In this document: in pieces, positions 28,478-61,498 of the stretch
How the letters are laid out: every line of letters starts with the position of its first letter
Position numbering within the stretch: the stretch's first letter is position 1
Sequence record: MH791411.1
Length of the DNA stretch: 64,000 nucleotides
Source of the DNA: Escherichia phage Ecwhy_1
Reading direction: 5' to 3' (one strand)
Notes under the pieces: generated by a model
Databases searched by the model: none
What the model was told of the DNA's origin: nothing
What the model saw: the letters and a program-made list of their open reading frames with translations, nothing else
Made by a program: the position numbers and the translations under genes

Positions 28478-28494
28478 TCACTTTCCCAGATTTG

Positions 28495-28570
28495 ATAAAT
28501 AATATCATAGAGATCAGGGAATATTGCCTTAAATTTAAATGTGGTTTATATTTTTTGATAAATAATATTA
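28495..28570 (+). promoter_or_regulatory. two tandem late-promoter-like elements (ATAAATAATAT, T4 late TATAAATA-like) upstream of paralogous gene pair
   Basis: GATAAATAATATCATAG at ~28494-28510 and GATAAATAATATTA at ~28557-28570, followed by AAGGAG RBS and ATG at 28611. Confidence 0.5.
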
Positions 28571-28610: not shown

Positions 28611-29210
28611 ATGAGTCTTAATTCTTTTAACCGTAACTATGGTATGTCTGCTACTGCTCGTGAATACTGGGGTGGTAACAATGGTTTCGTAACCATCGTT
28701 GTTGATCTACCAGCAGATGTTGAAGTTGGTACTACCGCTGTTACTTCTGACGGTTCCGAAATTCAAGATGAAGCACTACAAACTGCAATCAGTAATGCTC
28801 AATACAACCAATTCATGATTACCCAACTACTACAACAACGTGCAGTACTAGTTACTACTTCCGTACTAGCTCTAGACACCGCTGTTGTTATCCCTGCTGA
28901 CTTTAAAACAGTTGGTGGTAACGTAATCGCGTTTGGTACTAGTGGTGCTGATGTTGCGGGTGGTGCTGGTTCTGTTGCTCTAACCTTCATCTGTGAACGT
29001 CAAGACGTATTTGACAAACAAGAAGTTCGCCCAGGTGCTGCTTACTCTGTTCCAGTTGATCCAACTGTTGAACTAGCTAAAGCAATTGCACAAGCTAAAT
29101 TCTTCCGTACCAAATCTTATGTTGCTCTAGGTACTGATGGTGTTGGTGATGCTGCTGCGGCTGACGCTGTTGCAATTAAAGTTCGTGCTGCTCTACCAGT
29201 ACAACTATAA
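28611..29210 (+). CDS. putative abundant late protein, paralog A (199 aa), function unknown
   Basis: Strong RBS, late-promoter-like motifs upstream, biased codon choice (CTA Leu, CGT Arg, GCT Ala); shares segments with the next ORF. Confidence 0.7.
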   Translation: MSLNSFNRNYGMSATAREYWGGNNGFVTIVVDLPADVEVGTTAVTSDGSEIQDEALQTAISNAQYNQFMITQLLQQRAVLVTTSVLALDTAVVIPADFKTVGGNVIAFGTSGADVAGGAGSVALTFICERQDVFDKQEVRPGAAYSVPVDPTVELAKAIAQAKFFRTKSYVALGTDGVGDAAAADAVAIKVRAALPVQL

Positions 29211-29225
29211 TAGGGGGACTACAAT

Positions 29226-29915
29226 ATGTCTAATACTAATACTTCTTTTGAACGTATCAATGGTTATTCCTTTGATAAAATTCTAGGTTACTTCTGTGGT
29301 AAAAACGCCCTAGCATCTATCGCAATTAGTAAAATTGGTAATGTTAACGTGCGTGTTACTGGTGCAGTTGGTTCTTTCGCTGGTCTACAACGTTTCCTAA
29401 ACACTGACGTAGCTGATGAAATCGTTGCATATCTAAACGAAAAAGGTATCATCCGTATCGATGGTACTCCATTTGAAGCAGCAACTCTAGAAGCTGATTA
29501 TAACGCTGCTTACGCTGCACAAACTAACGTTAAACGTATCGTTGATGTTGTTCAACAACGTGCAGTTATCATCGCTACTTCCGAAATCGCTGGCAACGAC
29601 GCTGACCCATTCGCAGTTACTGGTTTTACCAACGCTGCTGACGGTATCCTAAGTGTTGGTGCTGTTGATATCGCTAGTGCTTCAGTAGTTACTTTCCTCG
29701 TTGAACGTGCTAACGTATTTGATAAAGATATTCAATCTTTCCAAGGCGTTCCAAGTACTGAAATCGAAGAAGGCCGTCTACTAATTGATGACCTAACCGC
29801 AGTTCCACTACTCGCTAAAGATGGTGTTACTGAAGTTGTTCTACGTTCCCAAGCTGCTGATGCTGCTGGTGACTTCGGTATCAAACTATTCAAATTCATC
29901 CCAGCGATGGTTTAA
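29226..29915 (+). CDS. putative abundant late protein, paralog B (229 aa), function unknown
   Basis: Paralogous to 28611-29210 (QQRAV-[IL]-TS...VFDK blocks); followed by strong terminator. Confidence 0.7.
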   Translation: MSNTNTSFERINGYSFDKILGYFCGKNALASIAISKIGNVNVRVTGAVGSFAGLQRFLNTDVADEIVAYLNEKGIIRIDGTPFEAATLEADYNAAYAAQTNVKRIVDVVQQRAVIIATSEIAGNDADPFAVTGFTNAADGILSVGAVDIASASVVTFLVERANVFDKDIQSFQGVPSTEIEEGRLLIDDLTAVPLLAKDGVTEVVLRSQAADAAGDFGIKLFKFIPAMV

Positions 29916-39933: not shown

Positions 39934-39947
39934 CACAAAAAAGAAAA

Positions 39948-39965
39948 GGGACTCCGAAGAGTCCC
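39948..39965. terminator. bidirectional rho-independent terminator (GGGACTC-cgaa-GAGTCCC)
   Basis: Perfect 7-bp stem; T-runs on both strands; directly downstream of the MCP stop. Confidence 0.65.
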
Positions 39966-40009
39966 TATTGTTTTTAATTTCTTGATTAAATCTTTTAAAT
40001 CGATTACAA

Positions 40010-41185
40010 TTACATGAAAGTAACGTTTTTGATAGCGATTTTGCTGTAGTAGTCAGCAGCGTTACCAAGAGAAGAAGTACTATCAGTCAATTGTACATAA
40101 CCATACCTGGTAAGGAAAGTTGTGACCAATTCCCCAGTGTTAGGGTCCATTACAGTACCGGAAGCCATTAGTGGGATGTATGGGCAATAGAACACACCAG
40201 CATCAGTTTCAGCATTACCTTTATAACCAATCAAAATGTCCTCGACATCTGAGGCATACGTATCGACAAAAATACGCATGGTGCTGTTTAGAGTACCAAC
40301 GAATTTAACGTTAGTTGGAGCTTCGAAAGTACCTTCAGTAGTACGTGCAAAACTAGAAGTAGTTGCAGACTGTAGAATGGTTAGAGCGGTTGGAGAAACA
40401 ACAGCCCAGTTCGCAGCACCACGTTTGGTACGACGAGCAACTTCGTTCGCTTGACGGTTGATTAGGGTAGCTAGAGCAGCGTGCTCGTCACCAACGAAGG
40501 TCGCAACACCAGTAACTTTAGATTGGTCATAAGTTACAGCAGCAGCACCAGGTAGTGCACGTAGACGGCTTAGTAGCTCTTGGTCGATTTCAACGGTAAC
40601 TTCTTGAGCGATTGCAGCCATTAGTTCAGCTTCAACATCGATACCATGTTGGGATTGTGCATCTTGTGCAGATTCAACAGTCCAACGTGCAGATAGACGA
40701 CGAGATTTCGCTTCAACAGTTTCACGTAGGATACGGATGTTAACGCGACGACCCATAGTACCTTCTAGTTGGCTAGTAGGAGCAGCTTGTGGGTTGCTGT
40801 TGTCTGCGTTTAGGTCACCAGTATAAGACTTAGCGATTTTGTATGGAGAAAGCATTTCTTCACCAGCGATAACACCAGGAGCGTTGTCAGCATATTGAAC
40901 ACGTAGGGTGTGGATCTGACCAACTGGGCCAGTCATTGGCTGAACACCGATGATTTCGTTAGCGATTACGGTTGGCATAACACGACGCATAATTGGTAGA
41001 ATCACTTTGTTTAGAGTAGCGATGTTACCAGCGGTGGTTGCACCAGAAGTAGCAGATTCGTTTAGCATTAGTTTACGATGGTTATCAAGTACGGTTTCCA
41101 TTACGGACTTACGAGTACCTTGTAGACCTTCAACTAGTTTCTCTTTAACTGCTACCCATTTGGATTCATTTAGTAGTTGTGACAT
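40010..41185 (-). CDS. major capsid protein (T4 gp23/gp24 family)
   Basis: 391 aa; HK97-fold gp23-like, N-terminal propeptide-like region; late promoter + AAGGAG upstream; strong terminator downstream. Confidence 0.85.
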   Translation of the reverse strand: MSQLLNESKWVAVKEKLVEGLQGTRKSVMETVLDNHRKLMLNESATSGATTAGNIATLNKVILPIMRRVMPTVIANEIIGVQPMTGPVGQIHTLRVQYADNAPGVIAGEEMLSPYKIAKSYTGDLNADNSNPQAAPTSQLEGTMGRRVNIRILRETVEAKSRRLSARWTVESAQDAQSQHGIDVEAELMAAIAQEVTVEIDQELLSRLRALPGAAAVTYDQSKVTGVATFVGDEHAALATLINRQANEVARRTKRGAANWAVVSPTALTILQSATTSSFARTTEGTFEAPTNVKFVGTLNSTMRIFVDTYASDVEDILIGYKGNAETDAGVFYCPYIPLMASGTVMDPNTGELVTTFLTRYGYVQLTDSTSSLGNAADYYSKIAIKNVTFM

Positions 41186-41229
41186 TATTATCTCCTTAAA
41201 GATGTTATATTCGTTTTTCAGTATGATAT

Positions 41230-41237
41230 TATTTATA
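41230..41237 (-). promoter_or_regulatory. late promoter -10-like element TATAAATA upstream of MCP
   Basis: Minus-strand TCTATAAATAATATCATACTG ~50 nt upstream of MCP ATG. Confidence 0.5.
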
Positions 41238-41275
41238 GAACTGAAAAATTTGATTATTAAAATGCTTTAAAATGT

Positions 41276-42391
41276 TTATTTTTTATTGATACCAGAAAGA
41301 ACATCGAGTTCTTTTAGGAATGCCATATCGTCAGCGGTCATTTCTTCGCTTTCAACAATAGCCTGACGGTTGCCAGTGATTACTTTACCTTCTGCAAGAG
41401 TTCTCTTAGCGGAAGACTGAACTGCTTGACGAGTGGTAGCAGATTCATTTACTTTAGTACCGTTAAGTACTGACTTATGGTACTTGCTGAAATCGTCTTT
41501 AAGCTTTTCTGTAGGAGAAGTAGCTAGAAGGGATTCCATAATTTGTTTCTGTTGTGTAGTTAGTGGCTTAACTAGTTCAGACATAATCGCATTACGAGCT
41601 TGTGAATCTTCCATAATACGTAGTTTGGTTTTAGCAGCTTTAACTTCACTTACAGTTTCATTTAGTTCTTGTTTAACTTGTGCAATTTCGTCTTCTTTAG
41701 ACTTAATTGATTCAGTTAGGGAACGTAGTAGTGAATTCTCATTAAATTGTTTGACATTAAACTCTTGAGCAAACGCTTCAAAGATTTTACGACCAAACAT
41801 ATTTTGTTTTGCTTCAACAAGATCTTCTTTCAAAGCGTATAGGTTTTTCTGAGTAGTTTCTGCAATGTATTTAGCAGCACTTTCAGAGGTACGTTTGATG
41901 AAGTTGTTACGTGCTTCAGCAATTTGACGGGAGCCTTCAGCTAGTAGTTTTACGCGAGTTTCAACTAGTTGACGTTTCTCGATGTGGAATTCTTTTAGCT
42001 CTTCTGCTAGGATACCGTTAGAGAAATTAACGAATTTACCCATGCATTCTTGAAGATGCTTACGTTCTTTACGCATTTGTTTAACTTCTTCAGCCAAAAC
42101 AGAGTTAGAAAACGCAGAGAAATTACTTAGGGTTTTACGGAGAGTTACACGATCTTCTACAAGACGTTTTTTCTCTTCATATACTGCACCCATTTCTTCA
42201 GCGATAACTTGAGTAACCATAGTATTTAGACCTTCGGTTAGCTCGGACAAATCTTGTTTGTAGCGGCCTTTCATTTCTTCACGCATTTCTGCGGCAAGTG
42301 TGTTTTTTTCTTCATTCCATGCTTCCTGAATTAGCTGTTTTGCCTCATCAGAAAGAGATGATTCTTTTAGAAGCTTTTCTAATTTAGACAT
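41276..42391 (-). CDS. prohead scaffold protein (gp22-like), coiled-coil with internal repeats
   Basis: 371 aa, helical/charged, repeats (NFSAFSNSVLAEEVK / NFSNGILAEELK); between protease and MCP. Confidence 0.55.
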   Translation of the reverse strand: MSKLEKLLKESSLSDEAKQLIQEAWNEEKNTLAAEMREEMKGRYKQDLSELTEGLNTMVTQVIAEEMGAVYEEKKRLVEDRVTLRKTLSNFSAFSNSVLAEEVKQMRKERKHLQECMGKFVNFSNGILAEELKEFHIEKRQLVETRVKLLAEGSRQIAEARNNFIKRTSESAAKYIAETTQKNLYALKEDLVEAKQNMFGRKIFEAFAQEFNVKQFNENSLLRSLTESIKSKEDEIAQVKQELNETVSEVKAAKTKLRIMEDSQARNAIMSELVKPLTTQQKQIMESLLATSPTEKLKDDFSKYHKSVLNGTKVNESATTRQAVQSSAKRTLAEGKVITGNRQAIVESEEMTADDMAFLKELDVLSGINKK

Positions 42392-42438
42392 TCGTTCTCT
42401 CCTTTAAGTACTGAAATATCTGTACTTCAACATACAAA

Positions 42439-42446
42439 TATTTATA
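42439..42446 (-). promoter_or_regulatory. late promoter -10-like element TATAAATA upstream of scaffold gene
   Basis: Minus-strand AAAAATATAAATATTTG upstream of AAAGGAGA RBS. Confidence 0.45.
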
Positions 42447-42457
42447 TTTTTAAAATG

Positions 42458-43078
42458 TTAACCTTTTAATTTCTTGAAAAAATCGTAAATTTCAGAATCT
42501 ACATTATTTACTGTTTTAGATTCTGTGATTTTTTTAGGACTATTACAAGGTGATCCGTACTTACTCATCAGAGATTCAAAAACCGCAGTAGGGTATGCCT
42601 CTGGAGCACTAGGTTGAGCAACAATATCAATTGTGATAATTTCAAAATCAGAAACTATTCCATTGTAATCCACGTTACCGGAACCACGAGAACTTACACC
42701 AAGTTTCACACCAGCTTCTAGCATTTTACGAATATTAGTACCATGAGCAGTATCAAGTAGTTTGATTTCTGCCATGCCGTTAGCACCTTCCATCCAGACC
42801 TTAGTAATCATTGCTGCTACACGGTCAAGGTTAATTGTTAGTGTTTCTGGGTGGTCACATTCAACTAGAATACTTTCACCTTTAGCCAAACGTTGAGCCA
42901 TATTATTAACAGCTTTAGTAATTTCGGCTAAAGGGTAAATTCTCTCATTTAAATTTCTTTGATCGGCTTGAATAGCAATACCACGAAGATAGCAATCACG
43001 CCCACCAAGTCCATTATCACGATGTTCCAAAACAACTTTAGAATCATTGAATGAAGACCATTCACGAATCATACTCAT
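42458..43078 (-). CDS. prohead core protease (T4 gp21-like)
   Basis: 206 aa; ECDHPE and GVSSRGSG regions typical of gp21 family; size matches. Confidence 0.8.
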   Translation of the reverse strand: MSMIREWSSFNDSKVVLEHRDNGLGGRDCYLRGIAIQADQRNLNERIYPLAEITKAVNNMAQRLAKGESILVECDHPETLTINLDRVAAMITKVWMEGANGMAEIKLLDTAHGTNIRKMLEAGVKLGVSSRGSGNVDYNGIVSDFEIITIDIVAQPSAPEAYPTAVFESLMSKYGSPCNSPKKITESKTVNNVDSEIYDFFKKLKG

Positions 43079-43109
43079 AATGATCTCCTTTCCTTTTCTT
43101 TATTTAGTG

Positions 43110-43943
43110 TTAGATTTTTGGTTGTGATTTTGGTAGTGGAGAACGAGATTTAGAAGCGGTATTTTTTGGCTTCGCAACATCTTTCATTTCGCCACGAGCA
43201 TTTTTACCTAGGTCTTCATCAGTGTGGGACATAGCATCTTCGTTTTCAAAATCATAATCTACTTGTTTTTCGGAAGCTTTAGCGAATTTCACTGGAGCAA
43301 CACCTTGAACTGGAGATTTAGCTTCTGGGGCAACTGGAGACTTGGTATTAACGCCAGCTTTTTCTTTCTTATCAACCGCAGCAACTTGCTTAAGTTTGAA
43401 AGACTCACCAACTTTCTCATCACCGAATTGTACATCAGCAAATTCGTCTTCAGATTCTTCACCATCAGCACCGAATTCTTCTTCCGCACCAACTTCAACT
43501 TCTTCGTCGTCAGAACCTAGGTCAACTTCATCACCACCGATTTCGTCAAACATTTGTTGTAGGCCACGGAAAGCATCTTGAATAGATTCCCATTGGTCTT
43601 CGGAAGGAACTTCTGCACCAACTTCTGCTTCAGCGTCAACTTCTTCGCCATCAGCATCAGCAGAGAATTCAACTTCTTCTTCTGCACTTTCATCTTCTTC
43701 ACCTAGGGTGTATTCGATTTCAGCATTTAGACCAGCGTCTGGTTGAACATCAAAGTCTTCGTCAAGTTTTTCTTCGTCTTTGACTTCAACTTCACATTCT
43801 TCTTCGTCCATGCTTTCTTCTAGTTCTTTATTGATTTCTTGAGCTTGCTCAACAAAGTACTTACGCATTTTTTTATCAGCAACATCTTGTTCGCCGTTTG
43901 CAAACGCTTCAATTGCTTCTTGTAGTAGTTTTAAATTCGCCAT
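43110..43943 (-). CDS. acidic prohead core/internal protein (gp67/gp68-like by composition and position)
   Basis: Strongly Glu/Asp-rich; preferred start is second ATG (ATGGAGGATATAATG, GGAGG as RBS). Confidence 0.5.
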   Translation of the reverse strand: MANLKLLQEAIEAFANGEQDVADKKMRKYFVEQAQEINKELEESMDEEECEVEVKDEEKLDEDFDVQPDAGLNAEIEYTLGEEDESAEEEVEFSADADGEEVDAEAEVGAEVPSEDQWESIQDAFRGLQQMFDEIGGDEVDLGSDDEEVEVGAEEEFGADGEESEDEFADVQFGDEKVGESFKLKQVAAVDKKEKAGVNTKSPVAPEAKSPVQGVAPVKFAKASEKQVDYDFENEDAMSHTDEDLGKNARGEMKDVAKPKNTASKSRSPLPKSQPKI

Positions 43944-44043
43944 TATATCCTCCATAGATATATTACATTCATATAAAGTATGATATTATTTAGTACTGAA
44001 AAATTTCGCCATTTTTAAAAGCTTTAAAAAGTGCGATTTTTGT

Positions 44044-44271
44044 TTACATTAATCCTGAACCATCACCGGATGGTGCTGCTGCATAAACAACAGCGACAAC
44101 ATTTTTGCGTCGTTGTTCTTCATTAGCTTTAAATTCACGGTACTTTCTTAAATTATTAAGTACTTGTAATGTTAGTTTTGGTTTTCTGGAATCAGTAATT
44201 TTATATACGTTCTGATCATCTTCAGGGTCGTATAAAGAATCACTGCTAGATTCAAAGATGTCCTTTAACAT
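44044..44271 (-). CDS. hypothetical small protein (75 aa)
   Basis: ORF between portal and core protein. Confidence 0.35.
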   Translation of the reverse strand: MLKDIFESSSDSLYDPEDDQNVYKITDSRKPKLTLQVLNNLRKYREFKANEEQRRKNVVAVVYAAAPSGDGSGLM

Positions 44272-44344
44272 TTCATCTCCTTTGAATATGCATTATAATG
44301 AGGGCAACTAATGTACCCTCATTCTTATACATTGTTATTTATGA

Positions 44345-46081
44345 TTAAAAAGAATCGCCTAAATTATTCGGGTTAAAACCTGCACTTCCTTGTTGTTCTT
44401 GGTATTCAGCATCGGCACTTTCTAAGTTACCGTCACCATCAATACCCAAATCCATACCAGGATCGTTAGGAGCATCTATACCAACAGATTGCAACCCAGC
44501 AGCATCTTCTTCACCACTTGACGGAGCGGAACCATCTTGTGGATTTTCTTGGAGCCACATTTGCTCATTCTTAACAATATCAGCTTTAGAGAAGCCCATT
44601 TTTTCAAGAATAGTTTGTTTTGCCATATATGGCAGATCGTTAAGTGGGAGATAGGTGTTAATTAGTTTAGCATCTAGTTCCGCTTTACGATAAGAAGCCA
44701 AGTTAATAGGTGGATTCATAATTACTTCAAAAGATGAAGTACTAATGTTATATCCATTTTTAACCATAAAACGTTTAAATTCTGCATCAAATAGTTTTGC
44801 AACTAAACGTTGATAACGCATACATTGGTTATTAAAACGTAATTCACTTGCCATTGCTTGTGTTGCACCATCACCGAATAGTGATACACCACCATCATCT
44901 GGACCTTGCGGTAGATATGAAGCTGGAATTTGCAATCCACGAATCAATTTATTGTTGAAGTAACGCAAGTCATCAATCTGACCTAAGTTATCACCACCTG
45001 GAAGTGTTTGTACATCTGAACCACGACCTTCAGAAGTTTGTGGGAAGAAGTAATCTTCTAGAATACTTAATGGATTATATGCTGCATCCATTAGAGAAGT
45101 ACTGCCACCTTTATTTGAAGGAATACGTCTTTGGTGAATTTCATTTTTGAATCGTTCTACGTATGCCATTGCTTGGTGAGTTTGCATATCACCAACGTCG
45201 ATTTTAAATACACGACGCTCTGGAGCACGTTGAACACGATAGATAATAATACTATCTTCAAGTAATTCTTTTTGTTTATAGACTTTGAAAACATCTTCAA
45301 GTATACTAGTACCAAAAGGCCAAACTCCATCTTGTCCTGTATTTAGGGTTAGATGAATTACGTGTTCTGCACCAACTGGAATAACATCAAGACGACCGTT
45401 AGTACTGAATGGGTCAGCAGAGTTTCCTTGGTTAGTAAAGCCAGATGCACCACCTGCTGCTACTGAACCACCGCCACCTAATGTGGTAGGGATTGCACCA
45501 GGATATGCAGTTTTGTCAAAACCAACTTGTAAGTTACTAAACACTTTATCTTTAAGATTCAAAGATACGTCACGGATATAATAAATTACAGGGGTTTTTC
45601 CGGTTGCTTCGTTAACGAATACTTGTTCAACGTTTTTTGGGCTTACCCAGTACCAGTCAAATGTTTCTGGGTCACGAATGAAGAATTGGTCACCGTATTT
45701 TAATAGGCCACGTACAATTTCATACATTCTGGTTTTAAAATCATTTTGTTCAGTCCATGCATCCAAACGGTCTTCAATAGTAGTTACTTCTGTATCACCA
45801 ATATCATCTTTATATTTGATTTTATATGGAAGACCAAAATCTTCAGTACTTTGTGTACAGAAGTCAGCAATGATATTAAGTGCTGTTCTAATTTCAGGAT
45901 CTTGGTCCATCTGTTCATACTGACTATAACGTTCAGTACGGTTAGCTAAACCATTGTATACTACTGGAAGATAGGAAGCGAAATTGGTTTTCGTTCCTGT
46001 TGATTTGTTGCTATTACTGGACTGATTAGGGACGACCGATAACTTCGATCTCCCCATTGTCATATGTCGTTTCCAACTCAT
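44345..46081 (-). CDS. portal vertex protein (T4 gp20-like)
   Basis: 578 aa, upstream of core/protease/scaffold/MCP as in T4; YSQYEQMDQDPEIRTALNIIADF resembles portal N-region. Confidence 0.7.
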   Translation of the reverse strand: MSWKRHMTMGRSKLSVVPNQSSNSNKSTGTKTNFASYLPVVYNGLANRTERYSQYEQMDQDPEIRTALNIIADFCTQSTEDFGLPYKIKYKDDIGDTEVTTIEDRLDAWTEQNDFKTRMYEIVRGLLKYGDQFFIRDPETFDWYWVSPKNVEQVFVNEATGKTPVIYYIRDVSLNLKDKVFSNLQVGFDKTAYPGAIPTTLGGGGSVAAGGASGFTNQGNSADPFSTNGRLDVIPVGAEHVIHLTLNTGQDGVWPFGTSILEDVFKVYKQKELLEDSIIIYRVQRAPERRVFKIDVGDMQTHQAMAYVERFKNEIHQRRIPSNKGGSTSLMDAAYNPLSILEDYFFPQTSEGRGSDVQTLPGGDNLGQIDDLRYFNNKLIRGLQIPASYLPQGPDDGGVSLFGDGATQAMASELRFNNQCMRYQRLVAKLFDAEFKRFMVKNGYNISTSSFEVIMNPPINLASYRKAELDAKLINTYLPLNDLPYMAKQTILEKMGFSKADIVKNEQMWLQENPQDGSAPSSGEEDAAGLQSVGIDAPNDPGMDLGIDGDGNLESADAEYQEQQGSAGFNPNNLGDSF

Positions 46082-52993: not shown

Positions 52994-54025
52994 TTATAGT
53001 GATCTGTAAATTTGGATTAGAAGATTTTTATCGAACATAGGTGAATCAATTTCCATGATTTGTTGTAACACAATCTCATCAACTGACTCAGTACTTTCAA
53101 AGCTTTCACCATCTTCAATAAGTTCTTTGATACTTTGCTTGCTAGTAACAACGTTAAACTCACGAATGTTATAAAGTTTAGTAAAAGTATCACGAATAAA
53201 ACTAATCTCATCAGTAGTGATAGCAATATCAACTTGAACCTTTGAAATAGTATTGTCTTGAAGATAATAACTTGGATCTGTTAATAGTTCTGAAAGTGTA
53301 AATGTTCTATATTTTGGTGCTTCTGACCAAGAATGGAAAGTTGGTTCTTTACCATGTTCTAAAATCATCACACCTCTTGCATCATCCCATGTATCAGAAA
53401 AGTTATGTGGGAAACAGTTACCTGTGTAAATTACACGAGTTCCTTTAGATGTTGTTTTTGCTTGTCTCTTGTGGAAATGTCCACTAAAAACATACTCACA
53501 ACCACCAAAAGAACCTTCAGTCTCTTTACCATGATCTGGCATCTCAACCATTTTATTGAGCAAGTATCCAGGTAACTCTAAGTGACCAAAAACATACTTA
53601 CTTTTAAGTTGAGGTAGAACTTTGTATTCATCTTCAATCATAAATGGAATGAAAGTACAATCATCAAATGTTGTGATTTCATTAATGAACTCGATGTTCT
53701 CATAAACTTGTGCCATATTAATACTAGTAATGTCACGTTTATTTTTATGATACATGTCATGGTTCCCAACTAAGAAGTAAACCTTATCAAAGTTGTCATT
53801 TAGTAATTGTAGAATTTGTAAACCATAGTTTAATGTTTGAATGTTAATATTACTGCGGTTATGGAAGTAATCTCCCATAAACACGCATACAGTAATACCA
53901 TTTTTCTTAGCAAGTTCAATCATAAACTTGATGAAGTTCAAACAATCTTCGTTGTGCTGCTTGCTGTTATTCTTTAATCCTAAATGAATATCAGTAAATG
54001 TAATTGCTTTATCAAATAGAGCCAT
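52994..54025 (-). CDS. Mre11/SbcD-like nuclease (T4 gp47-like)
   Basis: Start at MALFDK; phosphoesterase motifs DIHLG, GDYFH, GNHD. Confidence 0.85.
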   Translation of the reverse strand: MALFDKAITFTDIHLGLKNNSKQHNEDCLNFIKFMIELAKKNGITVCVFMGDYFHNRSNINIQTLNYGLQILQLLNDNFDKVYFLVGNHDMYHKNKRDITSINMAQVYENIEFINEITTFDDCTFIPFMIEDEYKVLPQLKSKYVFGHLELPGYLLNKMVEMPDHGKETEGSFGGCEYVFSGHFHKRQAKTTSKGTRVIYTGNCFPHNFSDTWDDARGVMILEHGKEPTFHSWSEAPKYRTFTLSELLTDPSYYLQDNTISKVQVDIAITTDEISFIRDTFTKLYNIREFNVVTSKQSIKELIEDGESFESTESVDEIVLQQIMEIDSPMFDKNLLIQIYRSL

Positions 54026-54851
54026 CTTCGTTTTTCCTTTCAATCATGTTCATTTCAATTTCGATTTGACGAGTGTGTGATGGTGTAAAACCATGCATCT
54101 CAAGTAAATCGTCTCGGATGTTACGAACATTTTTCTCACTATTAAGAATCGAACGGAAACTATTGTTAACGAACGAAGTATAGTAAGAGAAAGGATTCAA
54201 CTGTACTGCTGGTTTATCTTTTTTGTAAAGAATACTCTCTTTAAAGAGAAGTGCGTTTTTAACTAATTGTATTCTGGCATCACCCATCATTTCATCCAAA
54301 TATGTATAGTTTCTATAGTTGGATTTGTGTGAGATTTCCTCTGCCAGTTTAATGAACATTTTACCTAGTTCATTAGTGATTTTACCATGAACAGTACTGA
54401 ATTCTCCGTCTTCAAGATCACCTTTCCAGTGAGAACGAACGACTTCGTACAGAATACCTTCTTCATCTACAATGTAATGTTTGAATGGTTCAAAATTTAC
54501 TCTTGTATCTGCTGGGATATGTTCATCGGTAATTACACGAATAACCACCTCATCGATAGGTACATCAGTCAGTACTAAATTGTGCTCATCTGCGTATTCC
54601 TTCGCTTTCTTCGCACTCATACCTTCTTTTTCACGAATTGCATCAAGCATTTCATTGTTGAGACGTTTAATACGTGCTGCTTTAGCTTTATCTAAAAGTT
54701 CTGCTGTAATTTCGGATTCATCAAAAACGATATAATCGTACATACTGTAGCACTTATCTAGTAACCAGCAATATGAGATTTTACTTTTTTGTATCTCACG
54801 AAGTAAATCAGCATTGTTAAGATACTTTTTACGCTTCGGCCTATTTGTCAT
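54012..54851 (-). CDS. late-transcription sigma factor (T4 gp55-like) with large internal insertion
   Basis: Start at MTNRPKRKKYLNN (GGAGAG upstream); N-region KKYLNNADLLREI and C-region ITNELGKMFIKLAEE...NPFSYYTSFVNNSFRSI resemble gp55; ~279 aa versus ~185 in T4. Confidence 0.6.
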   Translation of the reverse strand: MTNRPKRKKYLNNADLLREIQKSKISYCWLLDKCYSMYDYIVFDESEITAELLDKAKAARIKRLNNEMLDAIREKEGMSAKKAKEYADEHNLVLTDVPIDEVVIRVITDEHIPADTRVNFEPFKHYIVDEEGILYEVVRSHWKGDLEDGEFSTVHGKITNELGKMFIKLAEEISHKSNYRNYTYLDEMMGDARIQLVKNALLFKESILYKKDKPAVQLNPFSYYTSFVNNSFRSILNSEKNVRNIRDDLLEMHGFTPSHTRQIEIEMNMIERKNEDGSI

Positions 54852-54939
54852 TATTTCAACTCTCCATGTTTTAAATCCAATAGGTACATTCCTTGTACCA
54901 TCAATGTTATTATAGCACCAAAAACGTCTTTGTCCCACG

Positions 54940-54947
54940 TATAAATA
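54940..54947 (+). promoter_or_regulatory. late promoter -10-like element TATAAATA upstream of first baseplate-module gene
   Basis: CACGTATAAATACATC ~36 nt upstream of ATG 54983; divergent from the sigma gene. Confidence 0.45.
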
Positions 54948-54982
54948 CATCAAATGTTCCCTTCTTATGGAGAATCAAAAAG

Positions 54983-58308: not shown

Positions 58309-60972
58309 ATGGCAGATACAAGTAAGAAATATGCCCAACAACAGTTGGGTCGTTTTGACCCTTCGTATCCACAACTAGCAACCGTGATGGATAACCGTGA
58401 CCCAACTAAATCCGGTAAGCTAAAAGTGTGGATTCAAGGTTCACAAAGTGATAAAAATTCAAAAGAGTCATGGATTGAAGCATCATACATGTCTCCATTC
58501 GCTGGTAAAACTCCAGGGATACCAAGTGCTGATGCTTATGGTCAATATCCAAAGGGATATGGTTTTTGGGCGGTTCCACCTGATGTCGGATGTACTGTTG
58601 TTGTTATATTTGCACAAGCAAGAACATTCCAAGCGTATTGGATTGGTTGTGTTTATGACCAACGTATGAATACGATGGTTCCTGGGATGGCTACTGAAAT
58701 AAGCAACTATGCTGGTACTGATATGCCATTACCCGTAACTGATTATGACCGTAATACAATTTCTACCAGTACTCAAGACAAATATGCAAACGTTCCAATT
58801 ATTGCAGGTCTGAAAAAACAAAACTTACTTTATGATGAGGAAGCGGGTGTTGCTAACCGTAGCAGTACTCGCCAGACCACCAGTACTGTTTATGGTCTTT
58901 CCTCACCTCGTGGTAACAGTTTTATTATTGATGATGGTTACACAGAAGAAGAATTAACAGCACCTACATGGGATCAAGATCCAGATGGTTATCAGGATAC
59001 CCAATTCAATAACCCAGTGAACGATACTCGTGTTGGTTCTCGTAAAAATGAAGGCGTTGTAATTAAAACACGTAGTGGTGCACAGTTGTTGTTATCTGAA
59101 GCCTCTGGTGATGTTCTTTTAATTAACCGTGATGGTACTGCACGTATTAAATTCACTGGTGAAGGTGATATTGAAATGCACTGTGATAAGAATATTAACA
59201 TTCGTGCAGGTCAAGATATTAACATGGTTGCTGGACGCTCATATAATATTGAAAGTGGAGCAGACTTCAATGCTCGTGTTGGTGCAAACACTAAACTAGA
59301 TTTGGTTGGTGCATTGGATGCTAAAGTTGGTGGTCAGGTTGTTATTAACGCTGGAGCAGATTTACGTTTAGTAACAGCAGCTTCATTACGTATGCAAAGT
59401 GGTAGCAGTACTGATATAACTGCTGGTTCTAATGCGTCAATCTCTGCTGCTACCAGTGCTAATCTTATTGGTTCTTCATCAGCTATTATTAGTGGTGGTG
59501 GTCAAACTCTTACTGTTAACAGTGGTGGTAATAGTGGTACTGCTGAATTTAATGCACCAAACTTCCGCACCCCATCTGCTGGCTTGAATGATCATATACA
59601 TGATATATCGGCTTGGGTTGATGCTGAGAATCACGGCAGTACTGTTGAACCTCCACGTCAAGGTGGTGGTAGTGGGAATAGTGAATCCCCAGTTCAACCT
59701 GAACCTGCTAATGATGTAGCTCCAACTTTAGCTCCAGTACAGGACACTGAAGCAATTCAATATGTAAATTATACAACAGAAACAGAACAAGTTCAAACAC
59801 AAGATTTAATGACTTCTGATCCTGGTATGACTGGTTATAGCATTACGTATGAAGGTCTTCATATGTTCATGCCGTGTAGTGGAACCATTCGCCAATACGG
59901 TTATTGGGGGAAAGGTGTCCCGACTAGTGGTGGTGGTAAAGCTGATAGAAGTGGCTGGGAAATACAGTGCAAGGGTGATGTTGTAGCTCCAGATGGCGGT
60001 GTAGTTGTTATCACTAATGGTGCTTTATTGGTTCAACATAAGTCTGGATATAAATCTGTATTTTATAATATTCAATCAGATTTGCTCAATAAAGACGTTG
60101 TTCAAAAAGGTCAAGTTATCGGTAAAGCTAATGGTGTTATTCAATTTGAAATAAGAGTTACCTCTGCCAACGTACTAGGATTTAGTGGTTCAGTTGACCC
60201 TGGATTATTCTATGCATCCCAGACTGGTACAGGTTCTGAAGCGGGAAATAAAACATTAATTGCAGGACAAGCAACGAACCAAGCAGCACCGAAAGCTGTT
60301 GTTCAACCTTCTGTTGATAGTGATGAATTAGTTGTAACAACTAAAATTAAAACTATCGGTACTGGGTATTCTCAACGTGGTTCTCGTCATGTCCCTCGTC
60401 GTAGAAGAACACAACGTTCAGGTGGTACTCCAGCACCCACTGCACAAGAATCATACAATGTGGGTAATGTTGATAAGACTGCAATTGATTGGAAAGTTGT
60501 TCCAGGTGATTCACAATTTATTTCTGAATTGAAAGAATATGAAGGAACAATGGCGTATCAACAAGCTAAAGGATATTACCGCAATGGTAAATTCTGGAGA
60601 TATTTGGACAGTCGTGGGTTCCCAACCATCGGCTACGGACACTTGATCGTTGGTGGTGAAAACTTCTCTGGTGGGATTACCGAACAGGAAGCCAATGATA
60701 TGTTGGTGCGTGATAGTAGTAAGGCTATATATGACGCAAAATCCATTTACGCTTCTTATAAGATGAAAACACCTTACATGGCACAACAAGTTCTATGTCA
60801 AATGGTATTCCAGATGGGTAAAGGTGGTGTAATGAAATTTAAGTCAATGCTATCTGAAATGGCTAAAGGTAACTACAAGCAAGCTGCTGCTCAAATTCGA
60901 AATTCAGCTTGGTATCGTCAAACTACACGCCGTGCTGAATTAATGGCACGTAGATTAGAGGCATGTCAATAA
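58309..60972 (+). CDS. baseplate central spike protein (gp5-like) with beta-helical repeats, M23-like domain and C-terminal T4-type lysozyme domain
   Basis: 887 aa; Gly/Ser-rich repeats (VGANTKLDLVGALDAKVGGQVVINAGADL), M23-like beta segment (GWEIQCKGDVVAPDGGVVVI...), C-terminal GFPTIGYGHL...MVFQMGKGG...SAWYRQT lysozyme signature. Confidence 0.75.
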   Translation: MADTSKKYAQQQLGRFDPSYPQLATVMDNRDPTKSGKLKVWIQGSQSDKNSKESWIEASYMSPFAGKTPGIPSADAYGQYPKGYGFWAVPPDVGCTVVVIFAQARTFQAYWIGCVYDQRMNTMVPGMATEISNYAGTDMPLPVTDYDRNTISTSTQDKYANVPIIAGLKKQNLLYDEEAGVANRSSTRQTTSTVYGLSSPRGNSFIIDDGYTEEELTAPTWDQDPDGYQDTQFNNPVNDTRVGSRKNEGVVIKTRSGAQLLLSEASGDVLLINRDGTARIKFTGEGDIEMHCDKNINIRAGQDINMVAGRSYNIESGADFNARVGANTKLDLVGALDAKVGGQVVINAGADLRLVTAASLRMQSGSSTDITAGSNASISAATSANLIGSSSAIISGGGQTLTVNSGGNSGTAEFNAPNFRTPSAGLNDHIHDISAWVDAENHGSTVEPPRQGGGSGNSESPVQPEPANDVAPTLAPVQDTEAIQYVNYTTETEQVQTQDLMTSDPGMTGYSITYEGLHMFMPCSGTIRQYGYWGKGVPTSGGGKADRSGWEIQCKGDVVAPDGGVVVITNGALLVQHKSGYKSVFYNIQSDLLNKDVVQKGQVIGKANGVIQFEIRVTSANVLGFSGSVDPGLFYASQTGTGSEAGNKTLIAGQATNQAAPKAVVQPSVDSDELVVTTKIKTIGTGYSQRGSRHVPRRRRTQRSGGTPAPTAQESYNVGNVDKTAIDWKVVPGDSQFISELKEYEGTMAYQQAKGYYRNGKFWRYLDSRGFPTIGYGHLIVGGENFSGGITEQEANDMLVRDSSKAIYDAKSIYASYKMKTPYMAQQVLCQMVFQMGKGGVMKFKSMLSEMAKGNYKQAAAQIRNSAWYRQTTRRAELMARRLEACQ

Positions 60973-61009
60973 ATATTTCAGTACTATAAATAATAATGAG
61001 GAAATCTTT

Positions 61010-61498
61010 ATGAGTAAATGGGAAATCAAAAATACCGACGAACAATTTTTTAAAGAAATTAAAGAATTTGAAGGTACTATTGCGTATCAGAAAAAACTTG
61101 GTTATTTTAAAAATGATAAGTTTTGGGTATATAAAGACAGTCTAGGTCTTGATACCATTGGTTACGGTCACCTTGTACTTAAGGGTGAAAGTTTCAAAAA
61201 TGGACTCACTGAAGCAGAAGCTGATGCTCTCCTTATAAAAGATGCTCAGACCGCTTACAATGACGCAAAATCAATCTATGATCAATTTGGAATGACTGCT
61301 CCAGTACAGGTTCAGCGTGTATTGTGGTTTATGGTGTTCCAAATGGGTAAATCAAAAGTTTTAAATTTCAAAAAAGCGATGGCTGCTCTCGGTCGTGGTG
61401 ATTATAAAACTGCTGGTAAAGAAATGCGTGATAGTTCGTGGTACAAACAAACCACATCCAGAGCGGAGAAGATGGCTCGCATCGTCGAATCCGTATAA
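61010..61498 (+). CDS. T4-type lysozyme (GH24 muramidase), standalone
   Basis: 162 aa; EFEGT, LDTIGYGHL, MVFQMGKSKV, SSWYKQT match T4 lysozyme catalytic/signature regions; paralogous to the spike C-domain. Confidence 0.8.
   Translation: MSKWEIKNTDEQFFKEIKEFEGTIAYQKKLGYFKNDKFWVYKDSLGLDTIGYGHLVLKGESFKNGLTEAEADALLIKDAQTAYNDAKSIYDQFGMTAPVQVQRVLWFMVFQMGKSKVLNFKKAMAALGRGDYKTAGKEMRDSSWYKQTTSRAEKMARIVESV

Follow-up and report, generated by a model that had tools for sequence, protein, structure and literature searches.

Here we describe the control regions of the head-gene cluster in a 64,000-nucleotide (nt) stretch of Escherichia phage Ecwhy_1 (sequence record MH791411.1; hereafter the window, numbered from its first letter), and in particular two long and similar stretches on its minus strand: copy A, upstream of the major capsid protein (MCP) gene, and copy B, upstream of the gene for an acidic virion structural protein. 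The window belongs to a jumbo phage of the PBECO4/121Q/RaK2 group; its 4.4-kilobase (kb) head-gene stretch (40000-44400) is 99.5% identical to Escherichia phage WPEC5, ~90% identical to Asteriusvirus jumbo phages such as PBECO4 and 121Q, and 72-76% identical to RaK2, CBB, GAP32, Yersinia fHe-Yen9-04 and Xanthomonas XaC1. The complete, assembled genome of Escherichia virus TH47 (352,450 base pairs (bp), ~98% identical to the window, which corresponds to its positions 212,241-277,979) served as the whole-genome reference, and comparisons drew on orthologous intergenic regions from ten annotated relatives plus further IMG/VR contigs.

The head-gene locus and its two upstream copies

The head genes follow one another in the order portal, a small protein of 75 amino acids (aa), acidic virion protein, prohead protease, a 371-aa scaffold-like protein and MCP, with an intrinsic terminator behind the last of these (Table 1). 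This resembles phage T4, where the order is portal, small protein, acidic core protein, protease, scaffold and capsid, and where the head gene cluster 20-67-68-21-22-23 has internal late promoters; predicted late promoters are likewise nested within the cluster here. The acidic-protein gene probably starts at the ATG at 43943 (43943-43941) and not at the listed 43955, because the GGAGG spacing fits and because this is where the gene is annotated to start in relatives. Within the same gene (43400-43820, minus strand), Glu/Asp-rich stretches are encoded by degenerate direct repeats, each 20-33 nt long and belonging to a family of four to seven copies.

Both strings that a first-pass annotation of this DNA had quoted from upstream of the MCP and acidic-protein genes are present, letter for letter, on the minus strand (41272-41220 and 44029-43977), and the long shared stretch that it claimed is borne out by an alignment of A and B over about 55 nt. 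A repeat finder returns a 16-nt exact repeat (41220-41235 and 43977-43992) and a second repeat of 31 nt at 74% identity (41257-41287 and 44014-44044); since the two are equally spaced, by 2757 nt, they form a single collinear repeat interrupted by small insertions or deletions. Local alignment of the 100-nt upstream regions gives a score of 68, as against a mean of 20.0 (standard deviation 3.3, maximum 33) for 300 mononucleotide shuffles, which rules out chance similarity within AT-rich DNA; the alignment then goes on, at lower identity, across the 5' leader to the ribosome-binding site and start codon.

In copy B, the upstream half is a stem-loop that begins, in gene orientation, 7 nt past the TAA of the 75-aa gene and leads into a T-run. 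The stem folds in every genus examined, with energies of -12.4 kcal/mol in PBECO4, -15.7 in PHA46, -19.0 in CBB and -12.9 in RaK2 (z -3.9 to -5.9), and its bases vary by genus yet remain complementary (TCGC/GCGA, TCCG/CGGA, GCCAT/ATGGT, ATGGCAT/ATGCCAT); in a consensus hairpin for 15 enterobacterial-clade sequences, six of the 16 predicted pairs are changed on both sides. Because a stem-loop and T-run lie after a stop codon, fold across genera and show these two-sided pair changes, we read the 'AT-rich palindrome' and T-run of copy B as the signature of a putative intrinsic terminator for the 75-aa gene, and not as the protein site that had been suggested for the palindrome. The arrangement is that of a back-to-back Rho-independent terminator and promoter, the promoter lying within ~10 nt, although the stem, unlike that of other Rho-independent terminators, is unusually AT-rich, with only a 4-bp G+C base. 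An Rfam search returned a chance-level match only, to MicX (19 bits vs a gathering score of 75, E-value 0.55). Downstream of the hairpin come, in order, an AGTACT box, the core CTAAATAAT, a conserved ATCATAC and the leader.

The corresponding segment of copy A, ACATTTTAAAGCATTTTAATAATCAAA, is without the G+C stem base present in B, and no stable stem-loop is predicted in the upstream half of the copy (minimum free energy 0 kcal/mol for 41240-41275), such that this part is ruled out as a terminator. Our best reading is that the segment is either the remnant of a disabled terminator or an AT-rich upstream region. It is identical in PBECO4, and alignable both with copy B and with the orthologous segment of RaK2; in PHA46, EJP2, CBB, GAP32 and Yen9-04 it is 10-15 nt shorter.

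What copy A does possess is a hairpin of another kind, in which TTTTTCAGT and ACTGAAAAA form a 9-bp stem with the MCP promoter core in the loop (-6.7 kcal/mol, z -3.0). This stem is retained in 12/12 distinct clade sequences examined, at -5.8 to -9.4 kcal/mol; two of its pair positions are compensatory (C-G/T-A and A-T/T-A) and wobble pairs are permitted on the sense strand only, all of which favours an RNA hairpin in scaffold-gene read-through transcripts. With no T-run after it on either strand, it is ruled out as a terminator. Nor is an enclosing hairpin a general feature of late promoters: among 80 promoter-like sites a promoter-enclosing stem of at least 9 bp occurs at three, and of the two besides copy A neither is a promoter of this type: in one the motif falls in the loop of a hairpin that resembles a terminator, and the other lies within a coding region. 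To our knowledge, a capsid promoter inside a conserved hairpin has not been described for T4. Relatives whose capsid protein is 64-72% identical (IMG/VR contigs) have neither promoter nor hairpin before the capsid gene, their scaffold-capsid gap being a short ribosome-binding spacer only; a separate capsid late promoter would thus be an innovation of the enterobacterial RaK2-like clade.

Stem-loops close to the 5' end stabilise or mark processed phage and bacterial messenger RNAs (mRNAs), as in the ompA leader and the T4 gene 32 region. The copy A hairpin is like these in being short, conserved and placed ~40 nt upstream of a very highly expressed gene, and in that it would form only in read-through RNA, with wobble pairs that fit the sense strand; it is unlike them in that its loop holds a promoter, so a role at the DNA level is possible, and in that its effect on processing or stability is a prediction. 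The leader of copy A (41186-41205, minus strand) also has a small conserved hairpin, ATCT-uuaagg-AGAT; as in the leader of copy B, the Shine-Dalgarno sequence lies in or beside the hairpin.

Every enterobacterial-clade genus examined (Alcyoneusvirus, Mimasvirus, Eneladusvirus and others) carries both copies at orthologous positions, and RaK2, the most distant member of the clade, has an alignable long form of copy A. The copy A intergenic region is identical to that of PBECO4 at 90/90 positions, as against 83% identity (17% differing) at 4-fold degenerate sites of the adjacent capsid gene. The likeness of A to B within a single genome is less evenly distributed, with scores of 54-68 in the window, PBECO4 and A4, 32-38 in PHA46 and EJP2, and 22-28 in CBB, RaK2, GAP32, Yen9-04 and XaC1, the last range being close to that of shuffles; a gap-tolerant alignment still matches A and B of RaK2 through TTTTTAA-GC-TTTTAA...CCA-TTTTTCA. 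Copy A of the window also scores against foreign B copies (37-41 for most other genera, 28-32 for Yen9-04 and XaC1), which argues against simple homogenisation within genomes. These comparisons are best explained by a terminator-promoter-leader cassette that was duplicated long ago, or whose two copies follow a shared design; the copies would have stayed closest in the PBECO4 lineage, and the one between the scaffold and capsid genes would have lost a working terminator.

The late core, its sigma factor and its distribution

Common to A and B is (T/C)TAAATAAT followed by ATCATAC, together the late -10 box and a probable start site. T4 late promoters, whose activity depends on gp55, gp33 and the sliding clamp, have TATAAATA at -10, which is recognised by gp55-RNA polymerase; this 8-bp box is exact in copy A (41230-41237), is represented in copy B by ACTAAATA (6/8 matches) and, as in T4, is not accompanied by a -35 element. 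The start predicted for copy A, ~41224, supposes a box-to-start spacing that we take to be as in T4 late promoters. Unlike in T4, the core of the clade is shifted and extended to (N)TAAATAAT(AT), and the two promoters here add a CATAC start element, which is conserved behind the core of both copies in most genomes, the exceptions being RaK2, with TATAT/CATAT, and PA5oct.

A gp55-family sigma factor is encoded nearby, a further likeness to T4: the protein is 76% identical to CBB_244, annotated 'sigma factor for late transcription', and matches phrog_12791 (E-value 1e-152) and phrog_234, 'late sigma transcription factor' (E-value 1.5e-16), with no match above threshold in Pfam. Its gene likely starts at Met35 of the listed open reading frame, whose TTG at 54953 is likely spurious. 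Upstream of it (54852-54953, minus strand) lies GGTGCTATAATAAC, an extended -10-type sigma70 promoter, which would suit a late sigma factor made at early or middle times.

The late promoter predicted for CBB and GAP32 (Buttimer et al. 2017, PMC5259590), from 35 sites, is ATAAATA plus an A/T-rich downstream region; it comes from the same clade and has the same core, and orthologous promoters lie upstream of the same head genes. In the portion of that paper available to us, only the short core is reported, and neither the terminator-promoter tandem, nor CATAC, nor the likeness of cassettes A and B, nor the capsid-promoter hairpin is mentioned; the same portion states that homologues of gp33 and gp45 were not found, in which these phages would differ from T4.

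The first-pass annotation had proposed that the extended element is common to late structural genes and could bind a late co-activator. A sensitive blastn search (blastn-short) of the TH47 genome with both 83-85-nt cassettes finds A, B and a 25-nt partial copy (window 60969-60997), and no long element beyond these. In addition, when 31 ATAAATA sites that precede genes are stacked in a position logo, the only signal before the core is a weak T-run at -12..-8, which arises because many promoters sit directly behind a terminator hairpin and T-run, as the listing of sites makes plain. Search and logo together rule out a genome-wide 50-nt cassette, and with it a general extended element or co-activator site. 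The annotation's other suggestion, a 'repeated promoter cassette', holds up better: there are two full copies and one partial copy, all of them with a late core of T4 type, and the window codes for a sigma factor of the gp55 family. What it had set against its own claim, namely similarity limited to these copies and stemming from a recent local duplication, is correct in its first half only, since the copies are orthologous in other genera.

The core itself is strongly avoided, with 58 copies of ATAAATA on both strands of the 352 kb of TH47 vs about 270 expected (in the window, 21 vs 41), and 32 of the 58 sit 10-120 nt upstream of gene starts on the same strand. The back-to-back arrangement of terminator and promoter recurs in the genome: by a strict criterion it is found at 9/80 NTAAATA sites, copy B among them, vs 20/1142 control positions.

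A recurrence of the core near 28497, also reported in the first-pass annotation, is real, AAATAATATCATA being exact at 28497-28509 on the plus strand. It precedes two paralogous virion proteins (28611-29210 and 29226-29915), both assigned to phrog_9326 and similar to one another by BLASTP (E-value 2e-6). At up to two mismatches this 13-mer has 12 matches vs 7.8 expected and is not enriched as such, so that only the three exact copies matter. In the scaffold-gene leader, a hairpin AATATTTGTAT..GTACAGATATT (42415-42442), with C/T-G wobble variation among relatives, comes immediately after the TATAAATA box, and the leader ends in TTTCAGTACTTAAAGGAG (42399-42416), whose AGTACT is the sole positionally conserved site of that sequence in the head module (9/10 genomes).

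We also observe TATAAT 3-5 nt behind many NTAAATA boxes (e.g. GTAAATAtgaTATAAT, TTAAATAtagTATAAT), at TH47 110-118 kb, 152989, 275247, 307789 and 322838, and at window 61947 (plus strand); these may form a further, composite class of promoter, or else be late and sigma70-type -10 boxes placed in tandem. As for ACTGAAAAACG...TATAAC, its assignment to the 'TGAAACG / TATA' promoter class of CBB is ruled out, the parts being only 3 nt apart.

Table 1. Coordinates of genes and control features in the window (promoter, terminator and hairpin assignments are predictions)
Feature	Position	Strand	Remarks
Portal gene	44345-46081	minus	
75-aa gene	44044-44271	minus	between portal and acidic virion protein genes
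Acidic virion structural protein gene	43110-43943	minus	phrog_15696, E-value 3e-109; so annotated in relatives
Prohead protease gene	42458-43078	minus	
371-aa scaffold-like protein gene	41276-42391	minus	
MCP gene	40010-41185	minus	phrog_138, E-value 6e-98
Canonical G+C-rich intrinsic terminator	39937-39966	minus	after MCP gene, end of head transcription unit
Copy B, shared block	43977-44029	minus	upstream of acidic virion protein gene; intergenic region 43944-44043
Copy B hairpin TCGCAC-TTTTTAAA-GCT-TTTAAAAA-TGGCGA	44006-44036	minus	stem-loop, putative intrinsic terminator of 75-aa gene
Copy B T-run AAATTTTT	43999-44006	minus	after hairpin, putative terminator U-tract; aligns with T-run of copy A 5' arm
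Copy B AGTACT box	43992-43997	minus	adjoins late core; copy A has AGTTCT here
Acidic virion protein gene late promoter core CTAAATAAT	43985-43993	minus	
Copy B CATAC initiator-like element	43978-43982	minus	
Copy B leader hairpin TATATC-TATGGAG-GATATA	43944-43962	minus	GGAG in loop; near-invariant in enterobacterial-clade relatives
Copy A, shared block	41220-41272	minus	upstream of MCP gene; scaffold-MCP intergenic region 41186-41275
Copy A upstream AT-rich segment ACATTTTAAAGCATTTTAATAATCAAA	41249-41275	minus	like loop and 3' half of copy B hairpin
5' arm TTTTTCAGT	41240-41248	minus	hairpin enclosing MCP late promoter
MCP late promoter core TATAAATAAT	41228-41237	minus	T4-type -10 box, presumed span -13..-6
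Copy A CATAC initiator-like element	41221-41225	minus	predicted start A ~41224
3' arm ACTGAAAAA	41214-41222	minus	hairpin enclosing MCP late promoter
Shine-Dalgarno AAGGAG of MCP gene	41192-41197	minus	
Scaffold-gene control region	42399-42446	minus	TATAAATA at 42439-42446
Two tandem late cores GATAAATAATATCATA and GATAAATAATATTAAG	28494-28568	plus	upstream of paralogous virion pair
Partial third copy ATAAATATTTCAGTACTATAAATAATAAT	60969-60997	plus	upstream of lysozyme-domain baseplate protein gene 61010-61498
gp55-family late sigma factor gene	54012-54851	minus	listed open reading frame starts TTG 54953
TCAGTACTGA	5305, 7412, 9396, 20112, 23586, 27008, 27975, 47785, 52026, 62297, 63972		

AGTACT excess and palindrome avoidance

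The AGTACT box of copy B is one of very many. In the window AGTACT occurs 129 times vs 21 expected, and in the 352 kb of TH47 917 times vs 119 (7.7-fold), an over-representation of 6-7.7-fold that rises to 35-500-fold for its 8-12-bp extensions: CAGTACTG is present in 25 copies vs 0.7 expected and TCAGTACTGA in 11 vs 0.07 in the window, and the extended form TTCAGTACTGAA in 20 vs 0.04 in TH47. It is the only strongly enriched 6-bp palindrome, GTGCAC coming next at 2.5-fold. The excess is written into synonymous codon choice, Ser-Thr dipeptides being encoded as AGT-ACT in 69/119 cases in the window (19 expected) and 390/761 in TH47 (114 expected), that is 51-58%, with the same bias for Val-Leu as GTA-CTN. 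Codon usage or amino-acid composition is nevertheless ruled out as its cause: enrichment extends to every frame and to intergenic DNA, the frequency of AGT-ACT is 3.4-3.6 times that predicted from codon usage, and the excess reaches the 12-bp palindrome.

Individual AGTACT sites turn over between genera, such that density is kept rather than position, and the excess is restricted to the RaK2-like clade (4.8-7.7-fold, as against 0.83-fold in more distant relatives); it is absent at the PA5oct locus. In intergenic DNA of TH47 the sequence occupies two fixed registers relative to the TATAAT of sigma70-like promoters, lying 1 nt before it in 16 cases and 21 nt before it in 19. The first register takes the form AGTACTgTATAAT, and the register adjoining the -35 the form AGTACTaTTGACA / AGTACTTGCA; such sigma70-like early promoters lie at about 88-105, 128-144 and 163 kb of TH47, outside the window. 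The early region also holds a 13-bp tandem array, AGTACTGAA(T/A)GAT x4 (TH47 104389-104440). Registers and array suggest an operator for a DNA-binding protein. AGTACTGTATAAT bears some likeness to the sites of LexA and of Cra, but both assignments were dropped, the second half-site being missing or reversed. A literature search for an AGTACT excess in jumbo phages found no report of one.

Other palindromes are missing altogether. At least 14 six-base palindromes, each expected 10-35 times, have zero copies in the 352 kb of TH47 (GAGCTC, CTGCAG, CTCGAG, CAGCTG, AGCGCT, AGGCCT, CGTACG, CGATCG and GCATGC, for example), a pattern that we take to be extreme restriction-site avoidance.

A composite cassette and the alternatives to it

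Synthesising these findings, we propose, with moderate confidence, that a single composite cassette, assembled from known kinds of signal and serving the expression of abundant head proteins, is present twice, as A and as B, rather than a single long promoter element. In support stand the repeat and its restriction to two or three sites, the folds and their covariation, conservation at orthologous positions and a sigma factor encoded by the phage. At the upstream end, copy B would carry a working-type terminator (AT-rich stem-loop, G+C base and T-run) that ends portal/75-aa transcription, at least partly, and copy A a homologous stretch that has lost the stem base and with it the fold; lacking a folding terminator there, scaffold-gene transcription should read through into the capsid gene. 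There would follow a -10 box, (T/C)TAAATAAT, read by host RNA polymerase with the phage gp55-like sigma factor, then ATCATAC, which would set the start at an A about six bases past the box, and lastly a short leader, similar in the two copies, with a strong Shine-Dalgarno sequence at its end, in or next to a small hairpin.

We speculate that the gp55-type holoenzyme initiates at three late cores, those of B, the scaffold gene and A, on the A of CATAC, and that the resulting nested transcripts all stop at the strong post-capsid terminator, such that dosage would rise towards the capsid protein. The hairpin of TTTTTCAGT and ACTGAAAAA would form only in read-through RNA from upstream, in which it would most likely serve the processing or the stability of the polycistronic message.

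A number of observations weigh against this proposal. In the window itself the copy B hairpin is weak (-7.9 kcal/mol, z -2.05, with 6/200 shuffles folding as well), has a 2x2 internal loop and an AAA between stem and TTTTT, and is not called by a simple consensus terminator scan of the window. The covariation depends on few independent lineages, and the 4-fold sites of the capsid gene are themselves constrained, at about 0.7 identity between genera, which makes them only partly useful for calibrating a neutral rate. A literature search for mapped transcript 5' or 3' ends in any phage of the clade found none. Moreover, a 'terminator remnant' alone leaves unaccounted for the identity to PBECO4 and the conservation in RaK2 of the unfolded segment of copy A, for which a role as UP-like or bent DNA is possible.

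The AT-rich segment upstream of the core (TTTTAAAGC-TTTTAA-AAT-...-TTTTT) could be a DNA-level enhancer of late transcription at the most expressed head genes, be it an UP-like or intrinsically bent region or a site for a phage late co-activator, the last being the idea of the first-pass annotation limited to these promoters. Its main support is that the copy A segment, though unfolded, is 100% identical to PBECO4 where 17% of adjacent 4-fold sites differ; the segment also aligns with RaK2, its T-tracts recur every ~11-13 nt, and the reported lack of gp33 and gp45 homologues, as given in the portion of PMC5259590 referred to above, leaves room for another mechanism of late activation in the clade. 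Yet none of the other ~30 ATAAATA-type sites has such a segment, the conservation of copy B is already accounted for by pairs that change in a compensatory way, and in PHA46, EJP2, CBB, GAP32 and Yen9-04 the shortened segment of copy A is different while core and hairpin stay; the A-B score drops to background in genera with the shortened form, and we regard an enhancer as unlikely. Were the A-B identity instead a neutral by-product of recent duplication or gene conversion in the PBECO4-type lineage, with the core promoter alone functional, one would understand why scores of 54-68 are confined to the window, PBECO4 and A4 and why the genome holds no further copies; but both cassettes are orthologous across all enterobacterial-clade genera examined, the long form of copy A is common to RaK2, the copy A intergenic region is conserved above synonymous sites, and compensatory changes occur in the hairpins of both A and B, all of which makes this explanation highly improbable.

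The CAGTACT of copy B, and the CAGTTCT of copy A, beside the -10 box might also be a functional extra element, bound by a clade-specific DNA-binding protein that modulates promoters, the remainder being terminator and leader. The genome-wide excess of AGTACT and of TTCAGTACTGAA, and the two registers before TATAAT, speak for such an element, as does the fact that the box directly adjoins the late core in copy B and at 60979-60984, and that RaK2 carries AGTACT at this place in its copy A. The box is, however, directly upstream of just 2/203 NTAAATA sites, is AGTTCT in copy A here, AGTACC in A4 and wanting in PHA46, EJP2 and CBB, and the CAGT of copy A is accounted for by the hairpin arm, co-varying with its partner; as an explanation for the repeat we consider it rather improbable. 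A broader idea, which we put forward tentatively, as a possibility well short of an even chance, is that the CAGTACT of the cassette is an instance of a clade-specific, genome-wide signal (TTCAGTACTGAA), a candidate phage protein reading the palindrome as both a self-mark and a promoter operator. If this is true, the A/B cassette would be one point at which late transcription is coupled to the genome-wide AGTACT signal.

For the composite cassette that we prefer, the consequence is a refined map of late-gene control in the PBECO4/121Q/RaK2 jumbo phages, with testable start and stop coordinates for the head operon and a capsid promoter that lies within a conserved hairpin; no new kind of promoter element is revealed. 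Specialists are likelier to be drawn to the AGTACT enrichment and the missing palindromes than to the A/B element itself, as together these point to strong selection at the level of the DNA in this clade, by a putative binding protein in the one case and by restriction avoidance in the other.

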